From positions 108,329 to 172,328 of the forward strand of contig JAZQCN010000036.1 of the NCBI GenBank assembly GCA_045546315.1: DNA of 64,000 nt, given 5' to 3'. Under the pieces are notes generated by a model. That model saw only the letters and a program-made list of their open reading frames with translations. It was not told the origin of the DNA and did no database searches. Origin of the DNA: Clostridia bacterium (GTDB taxonomy: Bacteria > Bacillota > Clostridia > UBA1381 > UMGS1253). Below, piece by piece: positions 37,238 through 61,355 of this stretch. Numbering within the stretch: the first letter of the stretch is position 1; each line of letters opens with the position of its first letter. The position numbers and the translations under genes are program-made.

Positions 37238-37262
37238 CAAAAAAGGGCTTTCGCCCTTTTTT
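37238..37262. terminator. bidirectional terminator
   Basis: AAAAAAGGGCtttcGCCCTTTTTT. Confidence 0.6.
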
Positions 37263-37917
37263 AATATTTTGCCAATTCGTCCTTTAACGCCTCTTGATAC
37301 ACCTGCGTGTACATCTCGTAGCCAAATGCGTTATAATGCACGTTGTCAGAAAAAATGTCCTTGCTCTGCATCAGCGGATGATTGAGCACGTCTATGTAAT
37401 GACAATCCGGTGTTTTCTGCACAAATTCTTTAAGAATCGACTCTAATTTCGCTCTTACTTCTAAAAGCCCCGGCTCCTTCGACTCATCCTTTCTCGGATG
37501 CGGTCCGGGCAAATAAATATGAATACCCGGAAAATCGTGCCTTGCATAAGCAATCACGCGCTGCCCAAGTGTAAAGCACTCCTCCGGCGTATAGCCGAGA
37601 GACGCGCCGTTTCCGAAGCATTCATACACAAGCACCTTCGGCGCAAGCGGACGAATCATACGCGGATAGTAGTAAAGCTGATGCTCCGCGCAGCTCGAGC
37701 CGAAGCCGCGGTTGATGACGCACCTCTTACCGCTCTTACCCAAAAGGCACTCTGCCATCGGCTTTATGCCATATTTCGGGCCCCATCTTGTGAATATAGA
37801 CGGACCGTAAAATACAATCTGCCCCGTTACGATTTCTTCTTGTTCATATTCGCGGATTTTAGGCTCCATATACTCATCATACTGCGCAATATAATCGAAA
37901 CCAACCTTAATTTCCAT
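37261..37917 (-). CDS. SGNH/GDSL-like hydrolase (putative carbohydrate esterase)
   Basis: ORF 37261-37983. ATG at 37915-37917 (MEIKVGF..) follows AAAGGAG. Blocks: FYGPSIF (Ser), GFGSS, FGNGAS, DNVHYN (DxxH). Confidence 0.5.
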   Translation of the reverse strand: MEIKVGFDYIAQYDEYMEPKIREYEQEEIVTGQIVFYGPSIFTRWGPKYGIKPMAECLLGKSGKRCVINRGFGSSCAEHQLYYYPRMIRPLAPKVLVYECFGNGASLGYTPEECFTLGQRVIAYARHDFPGIHIYLPGPHPRKDESKEPGLLEVRAKLESILKEFVQKTPDCHYIDVLNHPLMQSKDIFSDNVHYNAFGYEMYTQVYQEALKDELAKY

Positions 37918-37933
37918 GCTTATCACTCCTTTA

Positions 37934-38204
37934 GGCGGAACCAACGAATCCGAACTTGTTTTTTGCTTTCTGTTTTCCGCCATTCCTTCGTTAAAATCCT
38001 CGCAAATACACGAGTATTTGCTGCGTTTTTGCCTTGTACTGACAAAAAACAGTTTGCAAAAAATTCATTGGAACCTGAAATTGTTTAAAATCGAGATTTT
38101 TCGAGGCGGCAGGGCGAAGGAATACGCCCGTATTTCAAGACCGACAACGCTGAAAAAGCCGATTTTCAGCAATTTCAGGCAGGTTCGGATTTGTCGGTTC
38201 CGCC
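37934..38204. repeat. about 270-bp intergenic module bounded by a 22-bp imperfect inverted repeat
   Basis: GGCGGAACCAACGAATCCGAAC (37934-37955) versus GTTCGGATTTGTCGGTTCCGCC (38183-38204), 20/22 complementary. Nested IRs lie inside (CCTGAAATTG/CAATTTCAGG; ATTCCTTCG/CGAAGGAAT). Confidence 0.6.
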
Positions 38205-38214
38205 TAATCGCAAA

Positions 38215-39378
38215 TCACATCTCAATTAAATACAGCTGCGGTTTACCCTGTTCATCTTTATCGGATGCGTAGAGAATCGAATTGTTCGACCAGCTGAAGG
38301 TCGGGTGCGGATGTGTGCTCTGCGACTCCCACGATGTTCCGTGCTTGCAAAGCACCTCCATCTTCGGCGTATCCGTTGAAATATCAATAAGCATCAAATC
38401 GTCAAGTGCATCGCCGACCAGCTTTGTGTTGTCGATATTGGCATGGTAGTGGTTGCAGTAAAACGGCACTTCCAAGTAGCGCACGATGTTGCAATCCTTA
38501 TCTGCAAAGCCAATGCACGGAATTGCACTTTCCGACTCCTCGGCAAACGCCTGCTTACGGTCAACGGTGATGGTACCGTCGTGCCCCGGGCCGCGGTTGT
38601 CAAAGAAGACAAGACCGTCGCGCGTCCAGAACTCGTGGCCTACGCTGTCCGGCGCATCCTGACGAAAACACGGCATCACGCGGCGCGTCACGGTGTTGAC
38701 CATCCAGATTCTCTGCGTAACCAGATTCCACGGTCCTTCGTGGCAATAGGACAAAAACTCGTTCGTGTCCGGCGCAAACTGCACATGTGCCACCTGGCAG
38801 GTATCGTCGACAATCGTCTCGCCGCCGCTGCCGTCCATGCAGATGACAACAATTTTACCGCGCTTCTGCTTATAATAACGCTCGTTAAAGCCGTCGTAGT
38901 TTTTACCCGAGAACTGACGATGGTAATCGACAATCTCATTGAGCGCAAACGCCACATAGCGGTTGTCAAAGCTTACATTACCGCCAAAAAATTTGAAGCC
39001 GAATGGCGCGGTGTAAAGGTGCGTTAAGTTTTCCGTACCGCGCTCGAGCTTGTATACCTTATCACCGGCAATAAACACGATGTACTTACTGTCGTTTGTC
39101 TTGGTCACAAAGCCGATATTGTCAATGCCCCACGCCGCAAAATCTGTCAGCTGTGTACGCACACCGGTTTCTAAATCCATAGCGTACAGCTCCGCTATTT
39201 TCTCCCCTTCGTTTGTATGCTTGTAAATGATTTCCTTATCCCCTAAGGTATAGGAATTCTCCGTAAAATAGAAATGTACATTGCAGCCGCTCTTTGTCAG
39301 CTGCTTAATCGTTCTTCCGCTCGTTTCATCCACAAAGGTGGTGATTTCGGACGGAAACTGTCTCCCTACATTCGACAT
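38215..39378 (-). CDS. oligogalacturonate-lyase-like (PL22-like) beta-propeller protein, paralog 1
   Basis: ORF 38215-39393. ATG at 39376-39378 follows GGAGG. No signal peptide. N-terminus and size resemble Ogl. YCNHYHAN metal-site-like motif. Collinear with 51313-52512. Confidence 0.6.
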   Translation of the reverse strand: MSNVGRQFPSEITTFVDETSGRTIKQLTKSGCNVHFYFTENSYTLGDKEIIYKHTNEGEKIAELYAMDLETGVRTQLTDFAAWGIDNIGFVTKTNDSKYIVFIAGDKVYKLERGTENLTHLYTAPFGFKFFGGNVSFDNRYVAFALNEIVDYHRQFSGKNYDGFNERYYKQKRGKIVVICMDGSGGETIVDDTCQVAHVQFAPDTNEFLSYCHEGPWNLVTQRIWMVNTVTRRVMPCFRQDAPDSVGHEFWTRDGLVFFDNRGPGHDGTITVDRKQAFAEESESAIPCIGFADKDCNIVRYLEVPFYCNHYHANIDNTKLVGDALDDLMLIDISTDTPKMEVLCKHGTSWESQSTHPHPTFSWSNNSILYASDKDEQGKPQLYLIEM

Positions 39379-39396
39379 GCTGTCGCCTCCCAAAAA

Positions 39397-42300
39397 TTAT
39401 TTACAAGTCAGCGTAACGGATGCTTCCACCTTGGCATACTTTCCTTCGTAGGTTGCGGCAATCGTAGTATCACCCTTACCGACAAAGGTCACAACGCCGT
39501 TTGCGTCTACCGTTGCAACCGCCGGATTGGAGCTGGTAAATACAACGCCGCCCGCCAAAACCTCTTCGCCCTTGCCGTTATACGCTTTCAGCACAAGCGC
39601 CTTGGTTTCGCCGACGCTGCCGTTTACGCTGTTGCCCGCAAAGTAAATCGGCCAATACTGCATATCGGTTTCCATCTGTTCTTTGGAAGTATAGAAGCAA
39701 ACCTCGGTATAGCTGTTGTAGCTGCCTCCGTTTGCATCGCCCTGACCGTTGATGCGGAAATACTTCGCTGTCTTACCGCCCAGTTCAAAGATTTCCGGCA
39801 TATTGGTCGTACCGCTGGTTCTGGTATCAAGCACCTGCTCCCAGTTTATGCCGTCTACGGAAACCTCGGCGTTAAAGATAAAGCTTCTCGGACCCGAGGC
39901 TGTACCTAAACCTGCAAGACCGAACGCATACAGGCTGACCGGCTCTGCAAATTCATAGCAAATCCACGCAGGCTTTGCCGCAGACCAACGATTCACCAGC
40001 TCATCGGAAATGATGTTATCCACCGTACCGAATTCCACATATTTGTCGTGACCTGCGGAGAAGGTGACATGCGCTACGCTCTGACGGCTCAGCTCCGCCG
40101 GCACACCGCTCAAGCTTGCACTCAATTTCAGCTCAGTGATGTTGTTCGGGCTGTTTGTGCCCTCCTGCCCTGCAAACTTATCCGTTACAAATGTAATTGT
40201 ATACGATTTTTCGCCGATTGTAAAGCTTGCTGTGTTTCCGTTTTGTACAACCGGTGCACCGCTTGCCAGCGTTACGGTCGGGATATTGCCGTCCGTCAGC
40301 ACGGTATAATCGGTTTTATCCGTTGTAAAGCTCTTCATTTCCGCACCGTTTAAGAGCACACGCTCGGAAAGCAGGGAAATGATGTTTACCTTTTCTGCCT
40401 CGGTATATTCTACTGCGCTGTCCGAGATAACAATCAAGCCGCGGTCATCCCACAAAACCTTTTTGCCGAGTGCCTCTACGAGCGCGCGGAGCGGAATGAG
40501 CGTTCTGCTGTTATAGGTCTGCGCCGGCACATCCAGAATTCTCTCTTCGCCGTTAACCAGCATCTTATCCGAGCCAATCTGCAGCTGAATCGTCGTATTG
40601 CCCTTGGTTACCGATACGGTCTGCGACGGCTCATACCAACTAACCTGCGCATCAAAGCTTTCGGAAATAAAGCGTACCGGCACGAGTGTTCTGCCGTTAT
40701 CGGTAAACGGATATACATCCATATTCGCCGTGTCGACATAGGTTCTGTAGCCCTTATCGAGTACAACCGGGCTGTTTAAGAAAAGTGCTACCGTATTGCC
40801 TGCCTGACGTGCGGTGGAAATCGCGTTGTCCGAAACAGACCAAGTGTCCATTTTCGTCACCGGTGTAAGTGTTTCCGGTGCTGCTTCGCCTTCTTTAAGC
40901 GGTACAAATTCAACCGCAAGTGTCATCTCTGTCACATTCGTCATATGGATGGCAAGCTTATAAATATCCTGATACACTTCATCCGGTGCTGTCGGGGAAG
41001 TCGGCAGCGGTCTTGCCGCCATGATCTCAAAGGTTGCATCGGCAGGACCTTCGGTAATGGCAGCATACATTCTTTCGTTGCCGACCGTAAGCAGCGCACT
41101 CTTTTTATCTGCAGAGAGCGTGATGTCGCCGGTTGCATGTGCAAACCACCAAAGCTCGGACGGCTTTTTCATCGTTACCTCATCCTGTAAAACGATGCTG
41201 TTTCTGCCCTTGGTTATATACATACCGCGCTTTGCGGATGCAAAGTCATAGCTTGTCTGCGTCATATCCAGAATGGAGAATGCCTCATTTTCCGCTTCCT
41301 CGTGACGGATAAACTTTGCATATGCCGTTTCCACCTGATCCCAGCCCTTGCCCGGATTTACAATCAAAGTATTCTGACCTTCCGCGCGCTTTTGGTAATA
41401 CATATTTGCATCATAGAGCGAGGAATAATCGGAACGGCCAAGTGTGCGGATAAAACGCTGTCCGTTGGCATCAATTACAAATGTACCCAACGACTTAAAC
41501 ATATGACCGGTGCCGTTATAACCGCCCTGCATTGCCGCATAAAGCGCATTGTCATCCGTCCATGAGGAGCGGAAGGTGGCAACCTGTGCATCGTCCTTGG
41601 CATCAAAGGTTTTATCAAGCGGTGTATCGCCTACATCCGAGCTCATATTCACATCCTTATAAAGTAATGCAAAATACGGATAGTTGACACCGCTCCTTTT
41701 GTCCAGAGCCCAGTTGTAGAGCGGCTTATTATAGCGCGCTGCCAGCCAATACGGTGTCGGGTCACCTTCAATGGTGTCGGATGCATCACCAAAGTTAAAG
41801 TTCTTTTTCGGACCGGCAGTATATACCCAGTAGTCGCCCATATTTTCAACCACCGGATTGTCGAAAAACCAGGTAATCGCCTCCGGCTTTTCAAATTCCG
41901 GCTTAAATGCACTTTCAAGCTGTGCGAGCATATACACCATATACTCCGTTGCAAGACCCCAGTAGGATGAACCCTCCGGGAAGCCGCCGTCTGCGCCGAA
42001 GGCCTCAACCGGCTGTCTGCCGTGCTTGAGGGCATAGGTCAGCAAGTACTCCGCAAGCTGCGGCTCTTCATCGGCAATCGCAAGTGCAATGCCTGCCGCA
42101 GAGGTATTGGCAATCATAGTACGGTTCGAGGTACCCTTTGCAATTTCAACAGAAATTACACCGTCATACGAACGCACAAACTGCCAGAGTGCCTGCTTCT
42201 TTAAAATATCAATAATTTCTGTTCTTTCCTCCGGCGTGAGTGCATCGTAGCACCAATCGTAGAAGCACGCCACGCCGTACATCAGCTCCGACGGAATCAT

Positions 42301-43977
42301 CGGCGCAACATTCGACCAATCCGGGAAGGTGCCCGCATTGCGGATTTCTTTAAGACCGCGCTCGACATACTTTCTGTCCTGCTCGACGAGGTAAGTAAAG
42401 CCGAGCATCATCATGCGGCGCTCGATGCTTCTTGCCGCACTCAAAATATTTCTGCCGTTTGCAAAGGTGTACGTTTCACAAGGTGTAGTCAAAAGCAAAT
42501 CTGCATTGTCCTTGGTTTCTGCATACCAAATCGCGCACTGCTCATCTGTCGCAATTTTATCCGTTACTTCCGTTCTGCTGTTGATAAACAATCTCGGATG
42601 TGCATTTAAGTTCGACACGTAGCTCTTCTCCGTTACCGGCTCGCCGATTTTTGCCCAGTTTGTACCGGTTGAGCCGTAATACTTTGCATCGCCGAAATCC
42701 GGTGCCGCATCGCTGTAAATGATAAAGTTATCCAGCAAAATGGTGTCGCCCGGCTGCAGCACCGGGAAAATGCGCATCTGCACCTCGGAATAGCTTTCTA
42801 CTTCTTTACTGAACGAAACGCTGTCCACTTCCTTGCCGTTTAAATAAGCAACAACGCTCTTTTTGTTAAAATCAAACACAGCCTTGATGTGGTCCCAAAC
42901 CTGCGTTCCGCTCGGCACAAAACCATTCTTTGCTGCGGCAAAGTTCGTGCCTGCCGCATCCTGAAGATAGATTGTCATCGAGCTTTGCGAGCCCTTGGTA
43001 AACTGTGCATAAAATTCCACCGTCAGCGTCGTCGGCTTTTCGCCGAGCGTCAGATTCTTTTCAAAGCGCGGTGTCTTTTGTACCCTTTCCAGATTGGTTG
43101 CGCGAATGACCTTTTCCTTATCCAGTAGAACCGGCTTAATATAGTCCGATGTACTGATTTTTGAAAAGTTTGCTTCACTGCCCGTCGGGACATAGCTATC
43201 GCCATTTAAGGAACAATCGTATGTAAACAAGGTATACTTGCCCGCCGGTACGGAAAGTGCCGGTGCAGGCGTCTTATCAAACACCGCCATAATTTCCTCC
43301 GGTGTCACAATTTTTTCTTCCTTCTCGCCACCGCCCAGAATATCCTCGGCGGTCACATTATCTGTCGTGGAAAATACAATATCGTCGACAAAAGCTTCTT
43401 CCCCTGCACCGATGGTCGACGTAAAACGGATTTGCACCTCGGTCGTATCCAAAGCCTTGAATGCTTTGCCTTCCGAGCTCAATTCCCCATTAACATACAC
43501 ATCGAAGGTGCCGGCTTTAAAGTCCATCACAATCTTGTACGAATTCCACTCGCCCTTCGTGTCGCCGTTTACCAGGGTTGTGCCCGTGCCGCCCATGTAG
43601 GCAACCGACGCAAACTTACAGCCCTCCGATTTCGCGCGGTAGGTCAGCGTCAAATTCGTCAGCGCCGAAAAGTCAAAATGCTTTTCAAAGCGCGGACCGT
43701 TCGTGCCCTCGGTATTGGTGTTGGTAAAGCGCATCACCATACCGGTTTCATCCTTGTAACCGGCAATTTTCGTCGTTGCCGCGTTGGACTGCTTTGTCCA
43801 TGCAAGGCTGTCCTTGCTGCTGGTCGCAAGGGGCTGTCCGTCGGAATAGCTTTCAAAATCGTCCGAAAACAAAATGTTGCCTTCCGTACTTGCGTTGTCT
43901 TTTGCCGCAAACACATTTGTGATGCCGCAACCAAGCAGCATGCAGATGCTCAAAAGCAAGCAAATTCCTTTTTTCAT
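39397..43977 (-). CDS. large secreted multidomain polysaccharide lyase (DUF4962/heparinase II/III-like core)
   Basis: 1526 aa. Signal/lipobox-like MKKGICLLLSICMLLGCGITNVFA. Two ConA/LamG-like N-terminal modules (..FVDDIVFS, ..LLDNFIIYSD). HPRLFINSRTEVTDKI and QNTLIVNPGKGWDQ (heparinase II/III-like). Cu-amine-oxidase-N-like insert GRTLVPVRFISESFDAQVSW / SRTLIPLRALVEALGKKVLW. Discoidin-like region. C-terminal Big_2 FTSSNPAVATVDANGVVTFVGKGDTTIAATY. Confidence 0.6.
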   Translation of the reverse strand: MKKGICLLLSICMLLGCGITNVFAAKDNASTEGNILFSDDFESYSDGQPLATSSKDSLAWTKQSNAATTKIAGYKDETGMVMRFTNTNTEGTNGPRFEKHFDFSALTNLTLTYRAKSEGCKFASVAYMGGTGTTLVNGDTKGEWNSYKIVMDFKAGTFDVYVNGELSSEGKAFKALDTTEVQIRFTSTIGAGEEAFVDDIVFSTTDNVTAEDILGGGEKEEKIVTPEEIMAVFDKTPAPALSVPAGKYTLFTYDCSLNGDSYVPTGSEANFSKISTSDYIKPVLLDKEKVIRATNLERVQKTPRFEKNLTLGEKPTTLTVEFYAQFTKGSQSSMTIYLQDAAGTNFAAAKNGFVPSGTQVWDHIKAVFDFNKKSVVAYLNGKEVDSVSFSKEVESYSEVQMRIFPVLQPGDTILLDNFIIYSDAAPDFGDAKYYGSTGTNWAKIGEPVTEKSYVSNLNAHPRLFINSRTEVTDKIATDEQCAIWYAETKDNADLLLTTPCETYTFANGRNILSAARSIERRMMMLGFTYLVEQDRKYVERGLKEIRNAGTFPDWSNVAPMIPSELMYGVACFYDWCYDALTPEERTEIIDILKKQALWQFVRSYDGVISVEIAKGTSNRTMIANTSAAGIALAIADEEPQLAEYLLTYALKHGRQPVEAFGADGGFPEGSSYWGLATEYMVYMLAQLESAFKPEFEKPEAITWFFDNPVVENMGDYWVYTAGPKKNFNFGDASDTIEGDPTPYWLAARYNKPLYNWALDKRSGVNYPYFALLYKDVNMSSDVGDTPLDKTFDAKDDAQVATFRSSWTDDNALYAAMQGGYNGTGHMFKSLGTFVIDANGQRFIRTLGRSDYSSLYDANMYYQKRAEGQNTLIVNPGKGWDQVETAYAKFIRHEEAENEAFSILDMTQTSYDFASAKRGMYITKGRNSIVLQDEVTMKKPSELWWFAHATGDITLSADKKSALLTVGNERMYAAITEGPADATFEIMAARPLPTSPTAPDEVYQDIYKLAIHMTNVTEMTLAVEFVPLKEGEAAPETLTPVTKMDTWSVSDNAISTARQAGNTVALFLNSPVVLDKGYRTYVDTANMDVYPFTDNGRTLVPVRFISESFDAQVSWYEPSQTVSVTKGNTTIQLQIGSDKMLVNGEERILDVPAQTYNSRTLIPLRALVEALGKKVLWDDRGLIVISDSAVEYTEAEKVNIISLLSERVLLNGAEMKSFTTDKTDYTVLTDGNIPTVTLASGAPVVQNGNTASFTIGEKSYTITFVTDKFAGQEGTNSPNNITELKLSASLSGVPAELSRQSVAHVTFSAGHDKYVEFGTVDNIISDELVNRWSAAKPAWICYEFAEPVSLYAFGLAGLGTASGPRSFIFNAEVSVDGINWEQVLDTRTSGTTNMPEIFELGGKTAKYFRINGQGDANGGSYNSYTEVCFYTSKEQMETDMQYWPIYFAGNSVNGSVGETKALVLKAYNGKGEEVLAGGVVFTSSNPAVATVDANGVVTFVGKGDTTIAATYEGKYAKVEASVTLTCK

Positions 43978-44067: not shown

Positions 44068-45639
44068 TCAGTTCAGCTGAATATCAATAGGCAATTTGCC
44101 TTTTGGTTCGAATTCACCGGTTAAAACCTCAAGAGGGTATTTCATATCCACAGGTCCTAAGCTGTAAATGACTCTCGGGAAATGCGGCGCTTTTTCTATG
44201 GAATACGGGTTTCCGAAATGGACAATCGTTGAAAGCTTAGACTGCATTGCTGCCATAAGATTGGTTATCTTTTCGGTCAGATTTTCACTACCTGCGTATG
44301 CACCGACTTCGGCAAAGGTTATAAAGTGAACTTCATCCACCTTTGTGCTTTCAAAGCAAACATTTTCAATCTGCTTTTTGTTCGGAAACACATTGATTGC
44401 CACACAGTTAGCATCAGGAAACTTTTCTTTGATTTCATCAATGATTTTATTCGCTGCAGCCCAGGAGCCTCCGGTTTTTTCCGTCCATTCTCTTACTTCG
44501 TAATTTGAATCGTCGTATAGATTTTCTGCCAAAACAACAAACAAGCGTTTCTTGCCGGCTTCGAGCTTTGCGGAAACATTTTCGTCTTTTATAAGACAAA
44601 TGCCTTCACGCCAAACCCTTTCGATACACTGTTTCTGATACTCCGAAATTTCAGTTGCGGTTGCAGGCTTCATGGTGGAGTTCTGTGCCCGAATCACTCT
44701 TGCTACGGCTTCGTTTAATCGCTCTTCGGTAAAAGCACCGTTTTTATATGAATTCAGAAGATATTCATATGAGGTTTTAAAGGGAACACGATAATTCGGC
44801 AGAACCATATCTATTCCTGCAGCGATTGCGATTCCGTAGCACTTATCTTCGCTGTGCTTCTGCAAAATCCCCATCATTGCAAAGGAATCGGTTAATATGA
44901 GTCCGTCAAAGCCCTGATTTCTTAATATGGACAGAAGCTTTTTAGACATACTCGCGGGATAAACAGGATCAATTTTAGGATAAACAACATGCTTTGTCAT
45001 AATGCCGGGAAGATTTGCTTCTTTCATTGCATTTGCATACGGAACCATATCAACATCAAGGATATCTTTTTCCGTAAGCATCGATAATCCTTCTTCCATA
45101 TGGGTATCCACTGTTATATCTCTTCCGCCGGGAAAATGCTTTGCAGTTGCAAACATTCCGTTATCCAGGTACCCTTTCAGCACCGCAGTTGTAATTTTAG
45201 CAACATAATTTTCATCACTTCCGCAGGTTCTGATAACGCGGCTGCGCGCATTGCCCATAACCATATCAACATTGGGTGCCCAGACTGTATTATAGCCTAA
45301 TTTTTTAGCTTCAATCGCTGTTATGCAACCATGCTGATATGCAATCTCTTCATCGTTTAAAGATGCCAGCGCCATCATGGAAGGAATCTTGTATTTACTC
45401 ATAGGAAATCCGGTTTCCATATCGCTGCATATAAGCACCGGATATCCTGCATGCGCATTTATTCTTTTAATTTCTTCAGCATTTCCGTTGACACATGGAA
45501 CCTGAACGGCACCTATGCTTTTTTTCTCAAGCATTTCATAAACAAAATTACGGTCCTCTTCATCGAGGTAACCTCTTACACAGAGAAGCTGCCCTATCTT
45601 TTGTTCGACTGTAAGTTCACGAATATTAAGCTCTTTCAT
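44068..45639 (-). CDS. glycoside hydrolase family 3 protein (cytoplasmic)
   Basis: ORF 44068-45693. ATG at 45637-45639 is preferred (MKELNIRELTVEQKIGQLL). KHFPGGRD motif. No signal peptide. Confidence 0.7.
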   Translation of the reverse strand: MKELNIRELTVEQKIGQLLCVRGYLDEEDRNFVYEMLEKKSIGAVQVPCVNGNAEEIKRINAHAGYPVLICSDMETGFPMSKYKIPSMMALASLNDEEIAYQHGCITAIEAKKLGYNTVWAPNVDMVMGNARSRVIRTCGSDENYVAKITTAVLKGYLDNGMFATAKHFPGGRDITVDTHMEEGLSMLTEKDILDVDMVPYANAMKEANLPGIMTKHVVYPKIDPVYPASMSKKLLSILRNQGFDGLILTDSFAMMGILQKHSEDKCYGIAIAAGIDMVLPNYRVPFKTSYEYLLNSYKNGAFTEERLNEAVARVIRAQNSTMKPATATEISEYQKQCIERVWREGICLIKDENVSAKLEAGKKRLFVVLAENLYDDSNYEVREWTEKTGGSWAAANKIIDEIKEKFPDANCVAINVFPNKKQIENVCFESTKVDEVHFITFAEVGAYAGSENLTEKITNLMAAMQSKLSTIVHFGNPYSIEKAPHFPRVIYSLGPVDMKYPLEVLTGEFEPKGKLPIDIQLN

Positions 45640-45698
45640 TTTGATGTACCTCTTTAATATTCTTAAAAAGTTCCAGCTATTTTTACTCTGCACTACCC

Positions 45699-45727: not shown

Positions 45728-45732
45728 TTCAT

Positions 45733-45777: not shown

Positions 45778-45807
45778 CATTGAAAATATTGCGCAGAGGT
45801 GAGAAAG

Positions 45808-47444: not shown

Positions 47445-47534
47445 ATGCCCCACTCCTTTTCTCCAGTGTAGCAAAAAATCTGTAAATAAGCAAGAAAATA
47501 TGGCTTTTTTGCATTTGAAAATGGTTTTTTTACA

Positions 47535-54653: not shown

Positions 54654-55385
54654 ATGCAGCTGCTTGTATCCATAAAGGTGTACAGAGAAAAATTTGTCGA
54701 GGAGCAGTTTTGCACGACGGACGATATTTTTGCGCTGGTCAAATCCGGCAGCTTTTCCTACGAAACCGAAAACGAGAGCTATATCGTTTCTGCAAACGAG
54801 GGTGCACTTTTCAAAGCAGGTGTGCCGGGTGTAAAGAAAGTGCTTTCACCGGTGACGATGTTTCTGTTTCGCTATAAAAATGAGCATTCACTGTTTCAGC
54901 ACAAAAAAATTGTGTTCGAGGATACGGCGCGCATGCAGTCAACCCTGCGGATGCTGGACAGCTTGTCCGACTACACGATGCCGGATGCCTTTGATTTTTG
55001 GTTTTCGCTGTTTAACGACATCGTTACGCAGTACCGCATAGAAAACAGCCAGAAAGAACTGCCCAATGACGAGGTTATACTGCGCGCAGCCAAAAGCTTG
55101 CAGGCGCATTACCACGAAAAGCTGGATTTAACGGAAGTCGCAAAGCGGTGCAATTTATCCTATCCGCAATTCATCCGCCGCTTTAAAAAAGCTATGCGCG
55201 TCACGCCGTCGGATTATGTAACGGCATTGCGATTCAACAAAGCCAAAGCACTTTTAACCGATTCGAAGTTGCAAATCCGCGAGATTGCTTTTGCCTGCGG
55301 TTTTGAAAGCGAATACTATTTCAGCAAGTTTTTCAAAAAACACATCGGCGTTTCCCCCGCTTACTTCAGAAAAACAACTATGTAA
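54654..55385 (+). CDS. AraC-family transcriptional regulator
   Basis: 243 aa. HTH ..LSYPQFIRRFKKAMRVTPSDYVTALRFNKAKALL... GAGGTGAGG RBS. Confidence 0.8.
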   Translation: MQLLVSIKVYREKFVEEQFCTTDDIFALVKSGSFSYETENESYIVSANEGALFKAGVPGVKKVLSPVTMFLFRYKNEHSLFQHKKIVFEDTARMQSTLRMLDSLSDYTMPDAFDFWFSLFNDIVTQYRIENSQKELPNDEVILRAAKSLQAHYHEKLDLTEVAKRCNLSYPQFIRRFKKAMRVTPSDYVTALRFNKAKALLTDSKLQIREIAFACGFESEYYFSKFFKKHIGVSPAYFRKTTM

Positions 55386-55431: not shown

Positions 55432-56814
55432 TTATAATGTTACGCCGTTTTTGAAAATGGCAATTTCTCGATAGCCGTTTTCTTCGTTTCTTGTCTTCTT
55501 GCCTTCTGCGACGGAAATGATGTAGTTATAAAAATCTGCATCCAGATCCTTGCCGTCTAACAGCGCACCTGCATTGTAGTCGATCCAGTTTGCCTTCTTC
55601 TCGGCAAGCGGTGTGTTCGTCGAAATCTTCACCGTCGGGCATACGCCGGCAAACGGTGTACCGCGACCTGTTGTAAAGAGCACCATATGGCAGCCGGAGG
55701 CGATTAAGTTCGTTACCGCAACCATATCGTTGCCCGGACCGTACAAAAGATTTAAGCCGCACTTCACTGCCGGCTCGGCGATGTCGAGTGCATCGACAAC
55801 CGGGGCACTGCCGCCCTTTTGTACACAGCCGAGAGATTTTTCCTCGAGCGTGGTAATGCCGCCCGCCTTATTGCCCGGCGACGGATTTTCGTAAATCGGC
55901 TGCCCGTAGGCAATAAAGTAGTCCTTATAGCGGTTAATCATATGAACTGTTTTTTCAAAAATGTGTTCATCCACACAGCGGTTCATTAAGATGGTTTCCG
56001 CGCCGAACATTTCCGGCACTTCGCTTAAAACAGCAATACCGTTTTCTGCGGTAAAGCGGTCGCAGAATCTGCCGACGAGCGGATTTGCCGTTACGCCGGA
56101 AAGCCCGTCCGAGCCGCCGCACTTTAAACCAATTTTCAGCTTCGATACCGGAATCGGCTCGCGCTTCTGCTTTTTCGCTTCCTCGGCAAGTGCGCGAAGG
56201 ATTTCCACACCCTCTGCAATTTCGTCTTTGCTGTCCTGCGCATTTAAGAAACGGATATTTGTACCCTCTGTGTCGCCGAGCACCTTTGCAAACTCACCCA
56301 AGTGGTTGTTTTCACAGCCGAGACCCAATACCAACACGCCGAACGCATTCGGGTGTCCGCAAAGGGATGCAAGCACCTTCTGCGTGGTTTCGTGATCGCC
56401 GCCGAGCTGCGAGCAGCCGTACGGATGCACAAACGCATAGGTATCTTCAAAAAAGCTTCTTGCCTTTTCCGCAATTTTTTCTGCCGCACCGTTGATGCAG
56501 CCAACTGTCGGGATAATCCAGAGCTCGTTACGGATTGCAGCCTCACCGTTTTGACGAAGGTAGCCCATAAAAGTCGGTGTTTCCTTATGTACCACTTCAA
56601 ATTCCGGTGCATAGGTATATTCAAGCTTGCCCTCAAGACCGGTTTTTACATTGTGGCTGTGCACATGCTCGCCCTCGGTAATATCCGCCGTAGCGACACC
56701 GATCGGAAAGCCGTACTTGATGACCTTTTCGCCTGCTTTGATGGCGCAGGCAGCATATTTATGACCGCTTGTCACATCGACAAGCACATTGTCCTTTTCA
56801 TGAATTTTCAGCAT
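55432..56814 (-). CDS. uxaA: altronate dehydratase (UxaA family hydro-lyase)
   Basis: 460 aa. N-terminal SAF domain MLKIHEKDNVLVD...IKAGEKVIKYGFPIG and a C-terminal UxaA-type domain. Adjacent to uxaB. Confidence 0.8.
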   Translation of the reverse strand: MLKIHEKDNVLVDVTSGHKYAACAIKAGEKVIKYGFPIGVATADITEGEHVHSHNVKTGLEGKLEYTYAPEFEVVHKETPTFMGYLRQNGEAAIRNELWIIPTVGCINGAAEKIAEKARSFFEDTYAFVHPYGCSQLGGDHETTQKVLASLCGHPNAFGVLVLGLGCENNHLGEFAKVLGDTEGTNIRFLNAQDSKDEIAEGVEILRALAEEAKKQKREPIPVSKLKIGLKCGGSDGLSGVTANPLVGRFCDRFTAENGIAVLSEVPEMFGAETILMNRCVDEHIFEKTVHMINRYKDYFIAYGQPIYENPSPGNKAGGITTLEEKSLGCVQKGGSAPVVDALDIAEPAVKCGLNLLYGPGNDMVAVTNLIASGCHMVLFTTGRGTPFAGVCPTVKISTNTPLAEKKANWIDYNAGALLDGKDLDADFYNYIISVAEGKKTRNEENGYREIAIFKNGVTL

Positions 56815-56815: not shown

Positions 56816-58180
56816 TTACGCCTCCACTAATTCTGCGATAACCTCGCGAATCGGACGCTCTGCACAGTCGGCAATGTAGCCCTCTACAGCCTCTAAAAGA
56901 CCGTCCACCTTCGTCAAATCCTGGCCCCACATCTCTGCGTTTGCAAGCACTGCCTTCGTTGTTGCGCCCTTCATAAATTCAAGCGCCGCCGGCATATCGT
57001 TTGCCTTGTCTGTCTTATAAAACATTACAAGCGCTGCAAGCGAGAAGGTCAGAATCTTCGACGGTGTGCCGTTTTCGATTGCACCCAAAAGCGACGGAAG
57101 AACTCTTTCCTTATACTTTGCTGTGGAGTTAAGGCAAATATCCAGCAGTCTGTGGCGGATGTACGGGTTTTCAAAACGCTCCATAACGCTGCCGGCAAAA
57201 TCCTCAAGCTCTGCCTTGGAAAGACCGTCAATCGTCGGGATAACCTCTTCAAAGATACCCTTGCGCACATACTTGCCCATAATTTCGTCGTCCATCATTT
57301 CCTTAACGGTTTCCAGGCCGCAAAGGTGCGCTGCCATAACGCTCATTGTATGTGCACCGTTTAAGATACGCACCTTGCGCTTCTTGTACGGAACGATATC
57401 ATCCGTGAAAACAACATTGTAGCCGTATTTATCGAGCGGGAGCAAATCCTTTTTATCGTTCATCCCCTCGATTACCCACAAGTGGAAATACTCAGCCGTT
57501 ACCATCAGCTTATCTTCGTAGCCGAGGCGCTCTTTCCACGCTGCCTCCTCGCCGCGCGGAAAACCGGTAACGATACGGTCAACGAGCGAGCTTGCAAAGG
57601 TGCAGGCCTTTTCCACCCACGCCTTGAAGCCGTCCTCTAATTTCCAAAGGTCGATGTACTGCATTACGCACTTTTTCAGCGCTCTGCCGTTAAAGTCAAT
57701 CAGCTCGCACGCGATAAAGATCAGACCTTTATCCATCGCGCCGTCAAACGCCTTATAGCGCGCATACAAAAACTGCGTTACCTTACCCGGGAAGGAAACC
57801 GCCGGCATATCGTCAATTTTACAGGAAGCATCAAACGCAATGCCTGCTTCCGTTGTGTTGGAAATCACAAACTGCAGCTCCGGCTTATTTGCAATCTCTA
57901 AAAATGCATCAAATTCTGCATAAGGATTGATGCAGCGGCTTACCGCCGTATTCTTTGTAATTTCTTCTACGAGCTCGCCGTTTTGCTTGCCGCGCAAAAT
58001 CGTTGTGTATTTGCCGCCCTGGGCGTTAATGATTTCGCCCATGCCCTGCGCCAGCGGTTGTACCAAAATCACAGATGTGTCAAAATTCGCCTTTTCATTG
58101 AGTCCGTTGATAAAGTAGTCTACAAAACCGCGAAGGAAATTACCCTCGCCAAACTGTAAAATTCTTTCCTGCATAATCAA
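56816..58180 (-). CDS. uxaB: tagaturonate reductase (altronate oxidoreductase)
   Basis: 454 aa. N-terminal ILQFGEGNFLRGFVDYFI is typical of mannitol-dehydrogenase-family UxaB. 1-nt gap to uxaA. Confidence 0.8.
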   Translation of the reverse strand: MIMQERILQFGEGNFLRGFVDYFINGLNEKANFDTSVILVQPLAQGMGEIINAQGGKYTTILRGKQNGELVEEITKNTAVSRCINPYAEFDAFLEIANKPELQFVISNTTEAGIAFDASCKIDDMPAVSFPGKVTQFLYARYKAFDGAMDKGLIFIACELIDFNGRALKKCVMQYIDLWKLEDGFKAWVEKACTFASSLVDRIVTGFPRGEEAAWKERLGYEDKLMVTAEYFHLWVIEGMNDKKDLLPLDKYGYNVVFTDDIVPYKKRKVRILNGAHTMSVMAAHLCGLETVKEMMDDEIMGKYVRKGIFEEVIPTIDGLSKAELEDFAGSVMERFENPYIRHRLLDICLNSTAKYKERVLPSLLGAIENGTPSKILTFSLAALVMFYKTDKANDMPAALEFMKGATTKAVLANAEMWGQDLTKVDGLLEAVEGYIADCAERPIREVIAELVEA

Positions 58181-58290: not shown

Positions 58291-58320
58291 AAAAACCGAC
58301 TTGAATCAAGTCGGTTTTTC
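58291..58320 (-). terminator. intrinsic terminator after the GH78-like gene
   Basis: AAAAACCGACTTGaaTCAAGTCGGTTTTT. Confidence 0.65.
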
Positions 58321-58328
58321 TTTGATAT

Positions 58329-60482
58329 TTACATAGAATATTTTCCGCTCTGCACCGTCATTTCTTTGCCGTCCGGCATCGTCAGAATTGCAGCTTCACC
58401 TTCCGGCAGCTTCAGCTCAATTTCAAATGCGCCGTTTTCCTGCTTCCAGGCAACATACACGCCGCCGACCGGCGTTGCAACCGTGCCCTTGGCATACGGA
58501 CGGCTGCCGATATGCGGATGTACATGGATTTGCCCATCAGTATATGTTACGCCGAGCACCTTCGCCGTAAATTCATAAATCGCAACCGCGCTCCACGCGT
58601 GGCACTCACTGCGCACGTCTTCATACTCGTGCTCCGGCATCGTTGTACAGCCGAGCGCAACCATGCCACGGTAGGTATCCATAATTTCATCGGCTTTATC
58701 ATACATACCAACCTGCTCATAAGCGCGCAAACGGTAATACGTATATGCCAGTGTCGCCTTGCACGAAAGCTGTTCCGAACGAAGCAAAAGCTGTTTTGCA
58801 GCTTCGCCGGTCTCCATGCCGCAAAGTACTGCCCAGATTTGCTGATGCTGCGAAAAATGCCCCTTCAGCGGCGTATCGGCATACAGGCCTGCCGCTTCAT
58901 CATAGCATCTTTCTTTGACCTCTGCTTTGATTTGCTTTGCAAGCGCAGTATACGACGGTATGCTGTTGCCGAGCATAGCGTGCAATTCCGCTGTTTTTTC
59001 AAGTGCATCTGCAAGCATCATACTGTAAACCGACATTGGCGCATATTCCGGATAACAACCTGCCTCAAACTCCTTTGGCCAGTCGATAAAATCCCACAAA
59101 TTCGTCCGCGCTACCATAGTCCCATCCAGGTGCTCTGTAAACCACTGCAGAGTGCCGTCCGCCACATGGATATACTTCCGGATAAAGCTTTTATCCCCGA
59201 AACGCTTAGCATGTATATGCAGCATATAAATCAGAAACAGCGAAAATCCCGGAATAAATTGCACGGTATTGGTCGGGAAACGGCTCTGTGTAAGCCCACC
59301 GACACGGTAGCTTTTTGCAAAATCATCTATCGCCTTTTCCGGCAAGGCTTTGTCCTGTGTAAGCTGGTAGGTAAAAAGCATCTGCTGGTTCGTATCCATC
59401 GTATACTGAAGCTGCTCATAATACGGGCAATCCACATACGTTTCATGCATACATCTGCGAAGCGTATTCACGCTGACCGCAAACACCTTGTTGTCCATTT
59501 CATTGCCAAAATCATAGTCATCATATGTATTGAGCGGATATCCGGTTTCCAGAAAGTCAAAACTGTCAATACAAACCTCACCCTCAGTTTCGATTTGTAT
59601 ATAACGGAACGTGCGCATCCAGAAGGTTTCAAAATCAAGCGTTCCGTCCACTTTTAAGCGGTCGCAATCTCCCAAAATAATACCGTCTTCCGCATCGCGG
59701 CGGCGTTTATATCTTTTACCGTCCTCCAAAAATGCCTTAGACTCTGTATAGGTCAGTTTCATTTCACCCTTGCCGCTTGCGCGCACGCGCACATAGCCAC
59801 AGGTTTCATAACCTGCGTCATACACACCGTTTTTCTCACTTGCAAAATCTTTTTTTTCAAAATACATCATCGGAATCGGTCGCTCTGTCACCGGATTCGG
59901 CGAGATGGTACGCCCACGGATGACCGAATCTAAGTTATAGATTTCTCTCCCTGAAACAGCAGGTAAAAACTCAAGCGCTTTTCCGTAATCCGGCGAGGTA
60001 AATTCATAGCACTGCACCGCATTATAGTTGCTATAGCCTTGTTCAAAGCCAAAGCGCACATTTTCTTCTTTAGCACAAACCCAGCTTTCATCCGTACCAA
60101 ATGCATCTGCGCCCAGATTGCCCCAGATGCAAAGCGAAAGATTTCCGTTTCGCATTACACTTTCCAGCAAAAGCCAGCTTTCCGGCTCCGGCTTGACTGC
60201 AAGCTGCAACACCCGCACCTCAAATTCATTTGTACCTGCGCGCAAATACGGTGTGATATCCAATTTATCATAATAGCCGATTTCGCTCGAACGGCGGCAT
60301 GGCCCGATTGCGACTAACACACCATTGATATATAGCTTATATCTTGCATCCGCATAAATACAAATCTCACTCTTCTCTACAGTTTCAAGCGCTGCACTTT
60401 TTTTGAAAACATACAATGCGTTTTCATTCTGCACCGCCACAGGCGATGTAATCATCCTTTGAATCTGCTTAATTTTTCCCAT
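58329..60482 (-). CDS. six-hairpin glycosidase, alpha-L-rhamnosidase (GH78)-like
   Basis: 717 aa. N-terminal rhamnosidase-N-like ARYKLYINGVLVAIGPCR. Catalytic-domain-like VDCPYYEQLQYTMD. No signal peptide. Confidence 0.5.
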   Translation of the reverse strand: MGKIKQIQRMITSPVAVQNENALYVFKKSAALETVEKSEICIYADARYKLYINGVLVAIGPCRRSSEIGYYDKLDITPYLRAGTNEFEVRVLQLAVKPEPESWLLLESVMRNGNLSLCIWGNLGADAFGTDESWVCAKEENVRFGFEQGYSNYNAVQCYEFTSPDYGKALEFLPAVSGREIYNLDSVIRGRTISPNPVTERPIPMMYFEKKDFASEKNGVYDAGYETCGYVRVRASGKGEMKLTYTESKAFLEDGKRYKRRRDAEDGIILGDCDRLKVDGTLDFETFWMRTFRYIQIETEGEVCIDSFDFLETGYPLNTYDDYDFGNEMDNKVFAVSVNTLRRCMHETYVDCPYYEQLQYTMDTNQQMLFTYQLTQDKALPEKAIDDFAKSYRVGGLTQSRFPTNTVQFIPGFSLFLIYMLHIHAKRFGDKSFIRKYIHVADGTLQWFTEHLDGTMVARTNLWDFIDWPKEFEAGCYPEYAPMSVYSMMLADALEKTAELHAMLGNSIPSYTALAKQIKAEVKERCYDEAAGLYADTPLKGHFSQHQQIWAVLCGMETGEAAKQLLLRSEQLSCKATLAYTYYRLRAYEQVGMYDKADEIMDTYRGMVALGCTTMPEHEYEDVRSECHAWSAVAIYEFTAKVLGVTYTDGQIHVHPHIGSRPYAKGTVATPVGGVYVAWKQENGAFEIELKLPEGEAAILTMPDGKEMTVQSGKYSM

Positions 60483-60485
60483 GCC

Positions 60486-61355
60486 CTATGTCCTCCTTTT
60501 ATGTCCCATTTGAATAAATATACCGCCCACAATCACGCACAATCCGACAACTGCGTTGACCGTAATTTGTTCCTTTAAAATCAGCGCCGTCCACACAAGC
60601 GACAAAAACGGCGTGATGTAAGCCAGATTGGAAATTTTCGCCGTTTTGCCCGATTCGAGCGCCCACATCCATGTCATGCACGCCAGTGCCATCGTAAACG
60701 CACCGTTCCAACAAAACCCGAGTGCCTGCCCGAGACTCGGCAAAAACAAATCGCCTTTACTCAGATTAAAAATGGTTGTTAAAACAAATGTGGTTGTATA
60801 GCTTATCAAAACCGATATGGGTTTATCATAGTGAAATTTTTGATTCAGCGCAGTAAATACACCGTAGCAAACCGCATCGAAAAAGCAGCACAGCGCACCG
60901 AGCAGTACAAGCGTATTCAAGTGCACCATATCTGCACTCGTCACAATCACAACACCGAGAAACGAAACCGCAATCGCAATCGCTTTGCGCGCAGTCATTT
61001 TTTCCTTTAAAAGAATCCAGGCAAAAACCACGCTCATAATCGGCCACATATAGTTAACGATAAACGCCTGTGATGCCGGCAAAATGGATGCACCGGCATA
61101 AAAGAAAACATAATAAAAGAATGTGCCCGGCAAACCAATGAGAATCATAATAAGATAATCTTTCGCCTTATAGTCCTTCAGCCGCTTTAAATTGCCTGTA
61201 AACAGATTAAACAAAAACATAAACAGCATCGCAAAAAACGAGCTTGCCCACAGCACCTGAAAGCTGGTTTGGCTGCCCAAAAGCAGCTTGGAAGCCGTTG
61301 CCATTGTTGACCACAAAAGTATGGAGATTGCCGCAAATATATATTCCTTTTTCAC
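60486..61355 (-). CDS. DMT-superfamily (EamA-type) transporter
   Basis: 289 aa, about 10 TM segments, two EamA-like halves. 3-nt gap to the GH78-like gene. Confidence 0.7.
   Translation of the reverse strand: MKKEYIFAAISILLWSTMATASKLLLGSQTSFQVLWASSFFAMLFMFLFNLFTGNLKRLKDYKAKDYLIMILIGLPGTFFYYVFFYAGASILPASQAFIVNYMWPIMSVVFAWILLKEKMTARKAIAIAVSFLGVVIVTSADMVHLNTLVLLGALCCFFDAVCYGVFTALNQKFHYDKPISVLISYTTTFVLTTIFNLSKGDLFLPSLGQALGFCWNGAFTMALACMTWMWALESGKTAKISNLAYITPFLSLVWTALILKEQITVNAVVGLCVIVGGIFIQMGHKRRT

Follow-up and report, generated by a model that had tools for sequence, protein, structure and literature searches.

The contig JAZQCN010000036.1 of a Clostridia bacterium (assembly GCA_045546315.1) carries, within the 64,000 nucleotides analysed here (positions 108,329 to 172,328, referred to as the window and numbered from its first letter), a 24-kb island of 16 genes. 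It probably serves an uncultured Clostridium of the animal gut as a mosaic locus for the catabolism of glycans that contain uronic acid, and consists of units that are regulated independently, have been gained and lost independently and work along the lines proposed below. A preliminary description, made from the sequence alone, had listed these genes with their domains, and our list of open reading frames (ORFs) together with Pfam and NCBIfam scans reproduced order, domains and positions (Table 1). Its claim of a uronic-acid glycan catabolic locus is supported by three features of the encoded proteins: a giant secreted lyase keeps the catalytic triad of family PL35, two PL22-like lyases (PL22a and PL22b) keep their active-site residues, and the UxaB and UxaA enzymes appear genuine.

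The 1526-residue lyase is the only exported protein of the island. A crude hydropathy analysis of all island N-termini, used in place of SignalP, finds a signal peptide on this protein alone, as had been described, while transmembrane segments are confined to the EamA/DMT transporter. The signal peptide comprises aa 1-24 (MKKGICLLLSICMLLGCGITNVFA, followed by AKD); a lipoprotein signal with a possible LLGC lipobox was considered and rejected, as the invariant VFA followed by A suits signal peptidase I better. Two beta-sandwich modules (aa ~26-430) precede the catalytic core (aa ~457-992; window 40948-42660), which is followed by a Cu_amine_oxidN1 module (aa 1084-1179), a CBM32/F5_F8_type_C module (aa 1326-1426) and a Big_2 domain. 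The N-terminal 430 residues are modelled as two lectin- or CBM-like beta-sandwich domains (predicted local distance difference test, pLDDT, 82), and a fold search with this model gave only generic beta-sandwich/lectin matches. Cu_amine_oxidN1 also occurs in a PrsA-like peptidyl-prolyl isomerase at 18677-19978 of the window, and because the two proteins have this module in common, it suggests a general surface-retention device in this organism.

The label "heparinase-II/III-like" given to this protein earlier holds and can be sharpened to a PL35-like core, PL35 being a glycosaminoglycan (GAG) lyase family. Using phmmer, aa 459-988 align to residues 17-555 of GAGase VII (8khw; E = 1.3e-37 to 2.3e-37), and 8khv and 9o3q are matched as well; judged by sequence alignment, the whole core matches the solved PL35 enzymes GAGase VII and GAGase II (8khw, 8khv) and the Bacteroides caccae PL35 chondroitinase (9o3q) with E-values of 1e-33 to 1e-37. 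The catalytic triad of GAGase II was established by mutagenesis as Tyr246 (acid), His401 (base) and Asn192 (neutraliser), and a Mn2+ site formed by His403, Asp405, Asp421 and His457 was likewise shown to be required for activity (PMC12088678). Residues N618, Y672 and H825 of the island lyase align to Asn192, Tyr246 and His401, respectively, and are invariant in its eight closest homologs, whereas three of the four Mn2+ ligands are replaced (His403 by F827, Asp405 by S829 and Asp421 by T845). Because these ligands are replaced although the triad is kept, we would class the lyase as PL35-like but atypical, rather than as a typical member of PL35.

In an exhaustive HMMER search, the protein fell into a large family (1555 representatives at E <= 1e-30) of which most members are uncharacterised and many have several modules; in the look-up of homologs, a 98% relative (P0001) stood in for the window lyase. 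Members of its clade score 250-700 bits to the window lyase, compared to ~130 bits for the characterised PL35 enzymes. The family is expanded, with at least five paralogs per metagenome-assembled genome (MAG), some in tandem (L005:3381-14572, L012:1671-15203, L006, L013, L014 and L016). Between the members of one tandem pair lie a GDPD-like gene, a GH3 gene and an unknown gene, and a GH28 gene is divergent beside this pair in the same MAG; another paralog is accompanied by genes for a sugar-phosphate isomerase/epimerase, an FAD oxidoreductase, a zinc-dependent alcohol dehydrogenase and a DeoR regulator. The contexts of distant homologs of the core are heterogeneous and give no hint as to substrate, and a literature search on DUF4962, a Pfam family matched by the giant lyase, in connection with pectin returned nothing directly relevant.

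Both PL22-like proteins match the family's beta-propeller over their whole length (PF14583, 81 bits for PL22a and 72.5 bits for PL22b against a cutoff of 30), with 3c5m (E = 1.8e-22) and 3pe7 (E = 1.1e-19), respectively, as PDB matches, and they are 53% identical to each other. In YeOGL we take the catalytic residues to be His242 and Arg217 and the Mn2+ ligands to be Gln350, His353 and His355 together with His287, a numbering that agrees with counting along the alignment. The equivalents of His242 (in the motif HEFW) and Arg217 (in R(I/M)W) are kept in both copies, and the metal motif Q-x-x-H-x-H is kept in PL22a as Q-x-T-H-P-H-P; the equivalent of His287 is ambiguous. H253, R228, H361 and H363 are invariant in an alignment of 25 sequences (A3) that includes PL22b. 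Neither protein has an N-terminal hydrophobic segment, as expected for cytoplasmic enzymes. The subfamily to which they belong is only ~80 bits from Ogl and has more than 1000 members, none of them characterised, and a literature search on PL22 residues found nothing directly relevant. Elsewhere its members neighbour genes for KduI, short-chain dehydrogenases/reductases (SDR), UxaC, UxuA, GH4, heparinase-like proteins and Opp-type ABC transporters; KduI, SDR and ABC neighbours suit uronide cleavage without pointing to one substrate.

A tblastn comparison of the 16 island proteins with 80 metagenome loci containing PL22 homologs revealed no co-occurrence; Pfam profiling of neighbours was used in its place for the loci of both PL22 and lyase homologs. 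Heparinase-II/III-like genes encoding ~620-675 aa lie directly upstream of PL22-subfamily genes at L096:7028-8896, L124:3997-6021 and L158:2885-4819, their products being ~21% identical to the window lyase core. As these are environmental contigs, the pairing of a heparinase-like with a PL22-like gene recurs outside this clade. In other gut Clostridia (L088:8965-11185 and L090:8952-11185), a PL22-like gene (56% identical) is grouped with just two others, a ribulose-phosphate-3-epimerase-like gene and a gene for a 113-aa cupin, and this trio is embedded among mraZ/ruvAB housekeeping genes with no other carbohydrate-active enzyme (CAZyme) gene nearby; the look-ups P0159 and P0156 represent one locus.

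Amongst the remaining enzymes, UxaB is predicted from its equivalog-level match (NF002969, 573 bits against a cutoff of 359) to be a bona fide tagaturonate reductase. UxaA was assigned by its Pfam domains; in the NCBIfam and Pfam scans no dedicated altronate-dehydratase model matched, and the galactarate dehydratase model stayed below cutoff. The GH3 protein would be of the NagZ type: its top PDB matches are all beta-N-acetylglucosaminidases, as is its top NCBIfam match, although the NCBIfam NagZ score of 116 lies below the cutoff of 207. The motif KH(F/I)PG(H/L)Gx4D(S/T)H, which we take to hold the Asp-His dyad of the NagZ subfamily, corresponds to KHFPGGRDITVDTH at aa 185-198, where the spacing and the D-T-H are kept and two inner residues differ. 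The GH78-like protein (GH78L) has no signal peptide and matches RhaB (PDB 2okx, E = 1.5e-32), including the six-hairpin and C-terminal domains. The GH42-like protein (GH42L) is a weaker case, with a partial-domain Pfam match of 29.5 bits, a GH42M match below cutoff and a weak match to PDB 5xb7 (E = 0.003); it has an NEP motif at residues 169-171, its nucleophile is guessed to be E320, and a single-sequence AlphaFold (AF2) model reached a pLDDT of 38.

The role of the two Gfo/Idh/MocA oxidoreductases, which the preliminary description had left unexplained, is largely accounted for if they are NAD-dependent glycosidases of the GH109 type. The product of 48817-50076 is a genuine member of GH109, as it matches PDB 2ixa with 306 bits (E = 4e-90) and 6t2b with E = 3e-64 and contains a GLGRRG NAD-binding motif. 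The catalytic His of GH109 enzymes lies in a GGHGG loop (Teze et al., 2020, as cited in PMC12269599). Such a loop is found as AGHGG at residues 333-337 of GH109 and as SGHGG at residues 313-317 of the second protein, Gfo1, which is only 23% identical to GH109 (blastp E = 7e-17) and has the GH109 enzyme 6t2b as its best PDB match (E = 2.6e-11). Glycoside 3-dehydrogenases were also searched for in the literature, with no directly relevant result.

Related genomes provide the evidence for the mosaic build. Contigs from MAGs of uncultured "Clostridia bacterium" in animal gut, such as RGIG2041 from goat colon, match the window at 96-99% identity. The locus L007, whose lyase is 80% identical, is compact: it combines EamA-GH78L-UxaB-UxaA-PL22b with AraC1 as the only AraC gene and with GH3-lyase-PL22a, and lacks window segments 52639-55431, 46641-51300 and 37212-38210. 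In another species (L004) only uxaB-uxaA is found, followed by a 62%-identical lyase paralog, and all other island genes are missing. A 98% strain (L001), compared over the segment from GH42L to PL22a, lacks the SGNH esterase gene, which is likewise absent from L007 and present in L005 and L091. The latter, from a near-identical strain (GCA_054278975.1), contains EamA-GH78L-UxaB-UxaA, AraC4, GH42L, a single PL22 gene and SGNH, and lacks window ~38980-51315; five of the genes it shares with the island are 98-99% identical at the protein level, and identity at the DNA level is 92-94%. The single PL22 gene (L091:8633-9823) encodes a clean chimera in which the first ~220 residues correspond to PL22b and the rest to PL22a, and therefore recombination between the PL22 paralogs deleted ~12.5 kb, a segment that held the lyase, GH3, AraC1-3, Gfo1 and GH109. 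L091 is a natural lyase-minus variant.

The uronate/rhamnose backbone of EamA-GH78L, UxaB-UxaA and PL22 is conserved, with the uxaB-uxaA pair kept in L004, L007 and L091 and the EamA-GH78L adjacency in L007 and L091, while the accessory blocks are separable. These blocks, namely AraC1 with GH3-lyase-PL22a (which recurs in relatives), AraC2 with Gfo1 and GH109 with AraC3, AraC4 with GH42L, and SGNH, are present or absent independently in related genomes. When the 16 proteins were compared by tblastn to 77 genome loci with lyase homologs, almost no partner co-occurred outside the immediate clade, the exception being a GH109 in L047 that is 49% identical to the window GH109. The four modules of an AraC gene and an enzyme gene that had been described are correct in their geometry, but their reading as equivalent modules of one pathway is not supported: because the blocks vary independently among relatives, the island is a mosaic and not a single fixed set of modules.

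In each of the four cases the AraC gene is divergent from a catabolic gene. The gaps had been given as 125-170 nt; measured from start codons backed by homolog lengths they are 121-168 nt, that is, 168 nt between GH3 and AraC1, 156 nt between AraC2 and Gfo1, 121 nt between GH109 and AraC3 and 125 nt between GH42L and AraC4 (GH3 homologs have 523 aa, which matches a probable start at 45639). The four regulators resemble one another in the helix-turn-helix (HTH) domain only and are not close paralogs. AraC1 is 74% identical to its counterpart in L007. Two repeats are candidate AraC operators: a 13-nt exact inverted repeat (45733-45745 and 45765-45777) between GH3 and AraC1, kept in L001, L005 and L008, and the 16-nt exact direct repeat GTATTATTTTATCATT (54544-54559 and 54621-54636) between GH42L and AraC4, kept in L091. 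A k-mer comparison of the four divergent intergenic regions detected no shared operator. The transcription units, nine in number, are delimited by strong hairpin terminators and promoter-like sites. Bidirectional terminators lie at the AraC1/AraC2 junction (46636-46668) and at the end of AraC4 (55392-55424), and an 18-bp hairpin (48753-48792) lies between Gfo1 and GH109; promoter-like sites precede EamA (61405-61377) and GH109 (50141-50113) and occur on both strands between AraC1 and GH3 (45699-45759), and a hairpin together with promoter-like sites separates GH78L from uxaB. Within the lyase unit, PL22a begins 3 nt after the lyase gene.

We found no ABC, PTS or solute-binding protein (SBP) importer in the island, in agreement with the preliminary description, the sole transporter being the EamA/DMT protein 3 nt upstream of GH78L (stop at 60486, GH78L start at 60482). 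The flanks hold no adjacent ABC importer either: on inspection, the island is bounded by housekeeping genes on both the lepA side and the yabR/divIC side, and no ABC or SBP genes occur among the scanned window ORFs of at least 150 aa. A PTS EIICBA gene of the glucose/N-acetylglucosamine (GlcNAc) family is located 4.5 kb to the left (30522-32771), a point on which the earlier account needed correction; it was rejected as part of the island, given its family and the intervening lepA and hemW. Relatives look different in this respect. Around the lyase homologs of 16 Clostridia loci, SBP_bac_1/8 and BPD_transp_1 are abundant, 18 permease and 10 SBP matches were found among 106 neighbour ORFs in 19 Paenibacillus loci, an Occultella homolog adjoins an SBP gene, two permease genes and a LacI gene, and Opp-type ABC components abound near the PL22-subfamily homologs of 24 metagenome loci. 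Since ABC importers are the usual neighbours of relatives of the lyase and of the PL22 genes alike, the missing importer is a real deviation. The best NCBIfam matches of EamA, YddG and the 2A78 carboxylate/amino-acid/amine transporter, are both below cutoff, and a literature search on EamA importers in polysaccharide utilization loci (PULs) yielded nothing directly relevant. Genes for uxaC, kduI, kduD, kdgK and kdgA, already noted as missing, were not found among the scanned window ORFs either; a pfkB gene (20513-21475) was considered as KdgK and rejected as 1-phosphofructokinase-like.

The following working can be proposed. After export, the lyase would probably stay at the cell surface by means of its Cu_amine_oxidN1, CBM32 and Ig-like modules, and there its (alpha/alpha)6 plus beta-sandwich core, having kept the triad, may cleave an acidic polymer by Tyr/His beta-elimination. 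Fragments would enter by some route other than an ABC system encoded in the island, most likely an unlinked transporter, with EamA/DMT as a candidate carrier of a small acidic sugar or disaccharide. Cytoplasmic removal of N-acetylhexosamines (HexNAc) would fall to the NagZ-type GH3, GH109 and the GH109-like Gfo1, that of rhamnose-type residues to GH78L and that of galactose-type residues to GH42L, and the SGNH esterase would take off acyl groups. PL22a and PL22b would then split the remaining 4-linked uronate di- and oligosaccharides into 5-keto-4-deoxyuronate and a saturated sugar. Galacturonate would pass through UxaC (encoded elsewhere), UxaB and UxaA to 2-keto-3-deoxygluconate, and 5-keto-4-deoxyuronate would require KduI and KduD encoded elsewhere. 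Each unit would be induced via its own AraC sensor.

Clues to the substrate fall into three groups. Galacturonate is indicated by UxaB/UxaA, whose genes stay with the backbone and with a lyase paralog more persistently than any others, by PL22 as the oligogalacturonate-lyase family, and by the GH28 gene beside tandem lyase paralogs. HexNAc is indicated by the kinship of the lyase core with PL35, by the GH3 of NagZ type encoded in the lyase operon and the recurrence of GH3 genes beside lyase homologs in L012 and L085, by the GH109 and GH109-like pair, and by the GH123 and Gfo/Idh/MocA genes near Paenibacillus lyase homologs. The third group consists of trimming enzymes of the rhamnose type (GH78L) and galactose type (GH42L) and the SGNH esterase. 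No textbook polymer fits all of these cues, and we concur with the earlier assessment that textbook pectin or heparin pathways fail to explain the island. Of its substrate reading, the uronic-acid-containing polymer stands, whereas a purely pectic or ulvan-like substrate is unlikely for the lyase block because of the NagZ-type GH3, the true GH109 and the published pairing of PL35 with GH109 for chondroitin (PMC12269599). Most likely, the substrate is a polymer, or several, in which galacturonate occurs together with HexNAc and/or rhamnose, candidates being wall or capsule polymers of microbes; alternatively, different units may serve different substrates. A more specific and speculative proposal, to which we give little credence, is a largely hydrolase-sparing route for a microbial or non-textbook polymer of galacturonate and N-acetylgalactosamine or GlcNAc, in which a PL35-like clade without the metal site would provide the extracellular depolymerase, PL22-type exolyases would replace GH88/GH105 and DMT/EamA would be a dedicated di- or oligosaccharide importer; teichuronic-acid-like, capsule-like and methanochondroitin-like polymers would be candidates.

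Several points weigh against the mosaic uronic-acid glycan locus as proposed. Different known polymers are suggested by the galacturonate and rhamnose cues on one side and the HexNAc cues on the other, such that the units may serve unrelated substrates, and every functional step derives from homology and context. With ~130 bits to characterised PL35 enzymes and three of the four Mn2+ ligands replaced, the substrate class cannot be transferred to the lyase from its sequence. Family searches of the 16 genes found no GH88 or GH105 that could strip the unsaturated uronate off the lyase products, among named proteins those most closely related to EamA are exporters, and the neighbourhood statistics used crude ORF calls, with only the top 25 Pfam families reported.

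Read as a single coherent pectic locus of the homogalacturonan or rhamnogalacturonan-I (RG-I) type, essentially as in the preliminary description, the island would depolymerise with its lyase, use PL22 as Ogl, take rhamnose with GH78L and galactan side chains with GH42L, deacetylate with SGNH and burn galacturonate with UxaB/UxaA. The intact PL22 active site, the equivalog-level UxaB together with UxaA, the presence of GH78-like, GH42-like and SGNH genes, the GH28 gene beside lyase paralogs in the same MAG and the herbivore-gut origin of the source MAGs, such as goat colon, are all in line with this, and the yes RG-I cluster of Bacillus subtilis likewise combines lyases with AraC, SGNH and GH42. 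We nevertheless consider it unlikely, as characterised PL35 enzymes act on glucuronic acid (GlcA)-containing GAGs or alginate and not on pectin (PMC12088678, PMC12269599). Moreover, GH109 has no pectic substrate and a NagZ-type GH3 lies in the lyase operon, no PL1, PL9, PL10, PL4, PL11, CE8 or GH105 emerged from the family searches of the 16 island genes, and the blocks are separable in nature.

It is similarly doubtful that the island is a Gram-positive counterpart of B. caccae PUL25, in which case all of it would target an unsulfated chondroitin-like or HexNAc-uronate polymer of host or microbial origin, with PL22 replacing GH88 and the dehydratase. PUL25 degrades chondroitin with PL35, GH88, GH109 and a dehydratase together, and cooperation of PL35 with GH109 is established there (PMC12269599); the best solved relatives of the island core are PL35 GAG lyases and the chondroitinase 9o3q, and the GH3 gene in the lyase operon, its recurrence in L012 and L085, the GH123 and Gfo/Idh/MocA genes in Paenibacillus and a GH88 gene near one Clostridia homolog would all agree with a HexNAc-uronate target. 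Set against these are UxaB/UxaA, which are specific to the galacturonate branch and show the tightest linkage of all genes to the lyase family (L004), the GH78-like and GH42-like enzymes, which have no role on chondroitin, and the PL35 metal site, which is not conserved. Family searches of the island genes furthermore found no sulfatase, GH88, KduI or KduD, with SGNH and GH42-like matches being weak, and PL22 chemistry would presumably be unable to cut the beta-1,3 bond from uronate to HexNAc.

That unrelated, individually regulated sugar-use genes gathered by accident at a recombination-prone spot, with no common substrate, is improbable in our view. Four unrelated AraC regulators, terminators between the units, the independent gain and loss of blocks and the PL22-like genes that elsewhere stand nearly alone among housekeeping genes could be explained in this way. 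It would leave unexplained why EamA-GH78L-UxaB-UxaA is repeatedly co-located with PL22 across species, and GH3-lyase-PL22a likewise, why another species has uxaBA next to a lyase paralog, and why at least five of the 11 catabolic genes are predicted to act on uronates. Finally, a role of the giant proteins in remodelling the organism's own anionic wall polymer rather than in nutrient acquisition, suggested by their paralog number and tandem copies, the Cu_amine_oxidN1 module in common with the PrsA-like foldase, the SLH proteins abundant near Clostridia lyase homologs and the sporulation and division genes around the island, is highly improbable given the operon linkage to cytoplasmic glycosidases, PL22 and UxaAB under AraC-type sensors, the sugar ABC importers that usually adjoin the homologs and the natural strain L091 without the lyase gene.

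Table 1. Genes of the 24-kb island, with coordinates in the window.
Product	Position	Strand	Remarks
SGNH/GDSL esterase	37261..37983	-	240 aa; Pfam 35 bits (weak match); strain-variable
PL22-like lyase a (PL22a)	38215..39393	-	392 aa (probable start gives 387 aa); cytoplasmic; Pfam PF14583
Secreted multidomain lyase	39397..43977	-	1526 aa; Pfam DUF4962 and Hepar_II_III_C
NagZ-type GH3	44068..45693	-	Cytoplasmic; Pfam GH3 188 bits; probable start 45639 gives 523 aa
AraC1 regulator	45799..46638	+	Pfam; divergent from GH3-lyase-PL22a unit
AraC2 regulator	46647..47474	-	Pfam; divergent from Gfo1, convergent with AraC1
Gfo/Idh/MocA protein (Gfo1), distant GH109-like paralog	47601..48743	+	Pfam
GH109 NAD-dependent N-acetylgalactosaminidase-type enzyme	48817..50076	-	Cytoplasmic; Pfam Glyco_hydro_109_C (PF21252) 181 bits
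AraC3 regulator, cupin sensor domain	50186..50992	+	Pfam HTH_18, AraC_binding, Cupin_2; divergent from GH109
PL22-like lyase b (PL22b)	51313..52521	-	402 aa; cytoplasmic; Pfam PF14583
GH42-like clan GH-A glycosidase (GH42L)	52651..54528	-	625 aa; weak match, Pfam Glyco_hydro_42 (cutoff 21)
AraC4 regulator	54654..55385	+	243 aa; Pfam HTH_18/HTH_AraC; divergent from GH42L
UxaA-type altronate dehydratase	55432..56814	-	Pfam SAF, GD_AH_second and GD_AH_C (321 bits)
UxaB tagaturonate reductase	56816..58180	-	NCBIfam NF002969; Pfam Mannitol_dh and Mannitol_dh_C
GH78-like alpha-L-rhamnosidase-type (alpha/alpha)6 enzyme (GH78L)	58329..60482	-	717 aa; cytoplasmic; Bac_rhamnosid6H 65 bits and Bac_rhamnosid_C
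EamA/DMT transporter	60486..61355	-	289 aa; two EamA repeats; Pfam EamA 118 bits; heads EamA-GH78L unit

The left edge of the island is formed by a strong bidirectional terminator (37238-37263) directly after SGNH, beyond which two small XRE-type HTH genes are followed by lepA, hemW and the PTS gene. The XRE-type genes (36164-36418 and 36675-37073) and a small membrane protein gene (DUF2178-like in L001) occupy window 35769-37073 between lepA and the island, a position taken in L005 by a second giant lyase paralog. On the right, a terminator (61421-61446) follows a yabR-like gene whose S1 domain was confirmed by Pfam; the genes beyond it are presumably divIC/ftsB, yabQ, yabP, an S4 protein gene, HU and mazG, names that we read from the translations. 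Farther to the left, nth and the PTS gene are separated by a low-GC (0.41) islet (28180-30455) with genes for an EcoRI-like adenine methyltransferase and a GmrSD/HNH-type nuclease, and L001 has different genes at this place, a 52-aa ORF and one for a DUF4832 protein. A cluster for cell-envelope polysaccharide biosynthesis (6680-13710) comprises genes for a MurJ/MATE-like flippase, a GT4 protein, a DUF4330 protein, a Wzy_C/O-antigen-ligase-like protein and a GT4-pyruvyl-transferase fusion, and is consistent with an SLH/pyruvylated wall polymer. Segments 915-2532 and 17005-18205 hold genes for a XerC/D-like tyrosine recombinase, SpoIIM, a sporulation-type sigma factor and a SpoIIAB-like anti-sigma kinase, and the sporulation genes in this part of the window confirm a spore-forming Firmicute host. 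Rfam and tRNA scans across the whole window gave no matches.

If the functional reading is true, PL35-type lyases occur beyond the PULs of Bacteroidota, as giant enzymes anchored at the surface of uncultured gut Clostridia, lyases of the PL22 family may serve generally to "finish" uronate oligosaccharides in the cytoplasm, and some Firmicute glycan loci may dispense with a linked ABC importer by using a DMT carrier or by scavenging the products of neighbours. The lyase-less strain L091 offers a ready comparison of cross-feeding with primary degradation. Uncharacterised CAZyme clusters are common in uncultured gut Clostridia; the island is a real, moderately unusual Firmicute glycan-utilisation cluster, and nothing about it overturns current concepts.

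Amongst known systems, B. caccae PUL25 resembles the island in having a PL35-type depolymerising lyase in one locus with a GH109 N-acetylgalactosaminidase and in lacking a chondroitin-sulfate-specific sulfatase gene; its enzymes are PL35, GH88, GH109 and a GlcA dehydratase, and its PL35 prefers unsulfated chondroitin (PMC12269599). Unlike PUL25, the island belongs to a Gram-positive host and is without SusC/D, ABC importer, GH88 and GH154-like dehydratase, adds two PL22, UxaB/UxaA, GH78-like, GH42-like and NagZ-type GH3 enzymes, and has a lyase of ~2.5 times the length, with surface and CBM modules and with three of the four PL35 Mn2+ ligands missing. The PL35 GAGases (GAGase II, 8KHV, and GAGase VII, 8KHW; PMC12088678, PMC11262172) have the two-domain architecture, by alignment over ~500 residues, and the Asn/Tyr/His triad in common with the island lyase, from which they differ by its distance of ~130 bits (E ~ 1e-37) and its Phe/Ser/Thr in place of His403/Asp405/Asp421. 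Gram-positive PULs of gut Firmicutes likewise co-locate degradative enzymes, regulators and a transporter gene, whereas the island transporter is of the DMT/EamA type with 10 transmembrane segments and not of the ABC/SBP, MFS or PTS kind. In pectin catabolism by Dickeya and Yersinia, the enterobacterial Ogl (YeOGL in Yersinia; PL22, PDB 3pe7 and 3c5m) acts with KduI/KduD and UxaCBA. The island has in common with this pathway a cytoplasmic PL22 with catalytic His/Arg and a His/Gln metal motif, linked to UxaB/UxaA; its PL22 enzymes, however, are two paralogs distant from Ogl, kduI/kduD, uxaC and a TogT/TogMNAB-type importer are absent, and a PL35-like lyase stands in place of PL1/PL9 pectate lyases. 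The B. subtilis yes cluster, which targets a rhamnose/galacturonate polymer, comprises YesW/X (PL11), YesR (GH105), YesT/Y (SGNH), YesZ (GH42), the AraC regulator YesS and the ABC importer YesOPQ. It is likewise a Firmicute locus with secreted lyases, an AraC-family regulator, an SGNH esterase and a GH42-type enzyme, from which the island differs in lacking PL11, GH105 and an ABC importer, in its lyase fold, in its HexNAc-active enzymes and in having four regulators instead of one. The island has parts of PUL25, of the Ogl/Kdu/Uxa pathway and of the yes cluster, and is a member of none of them.

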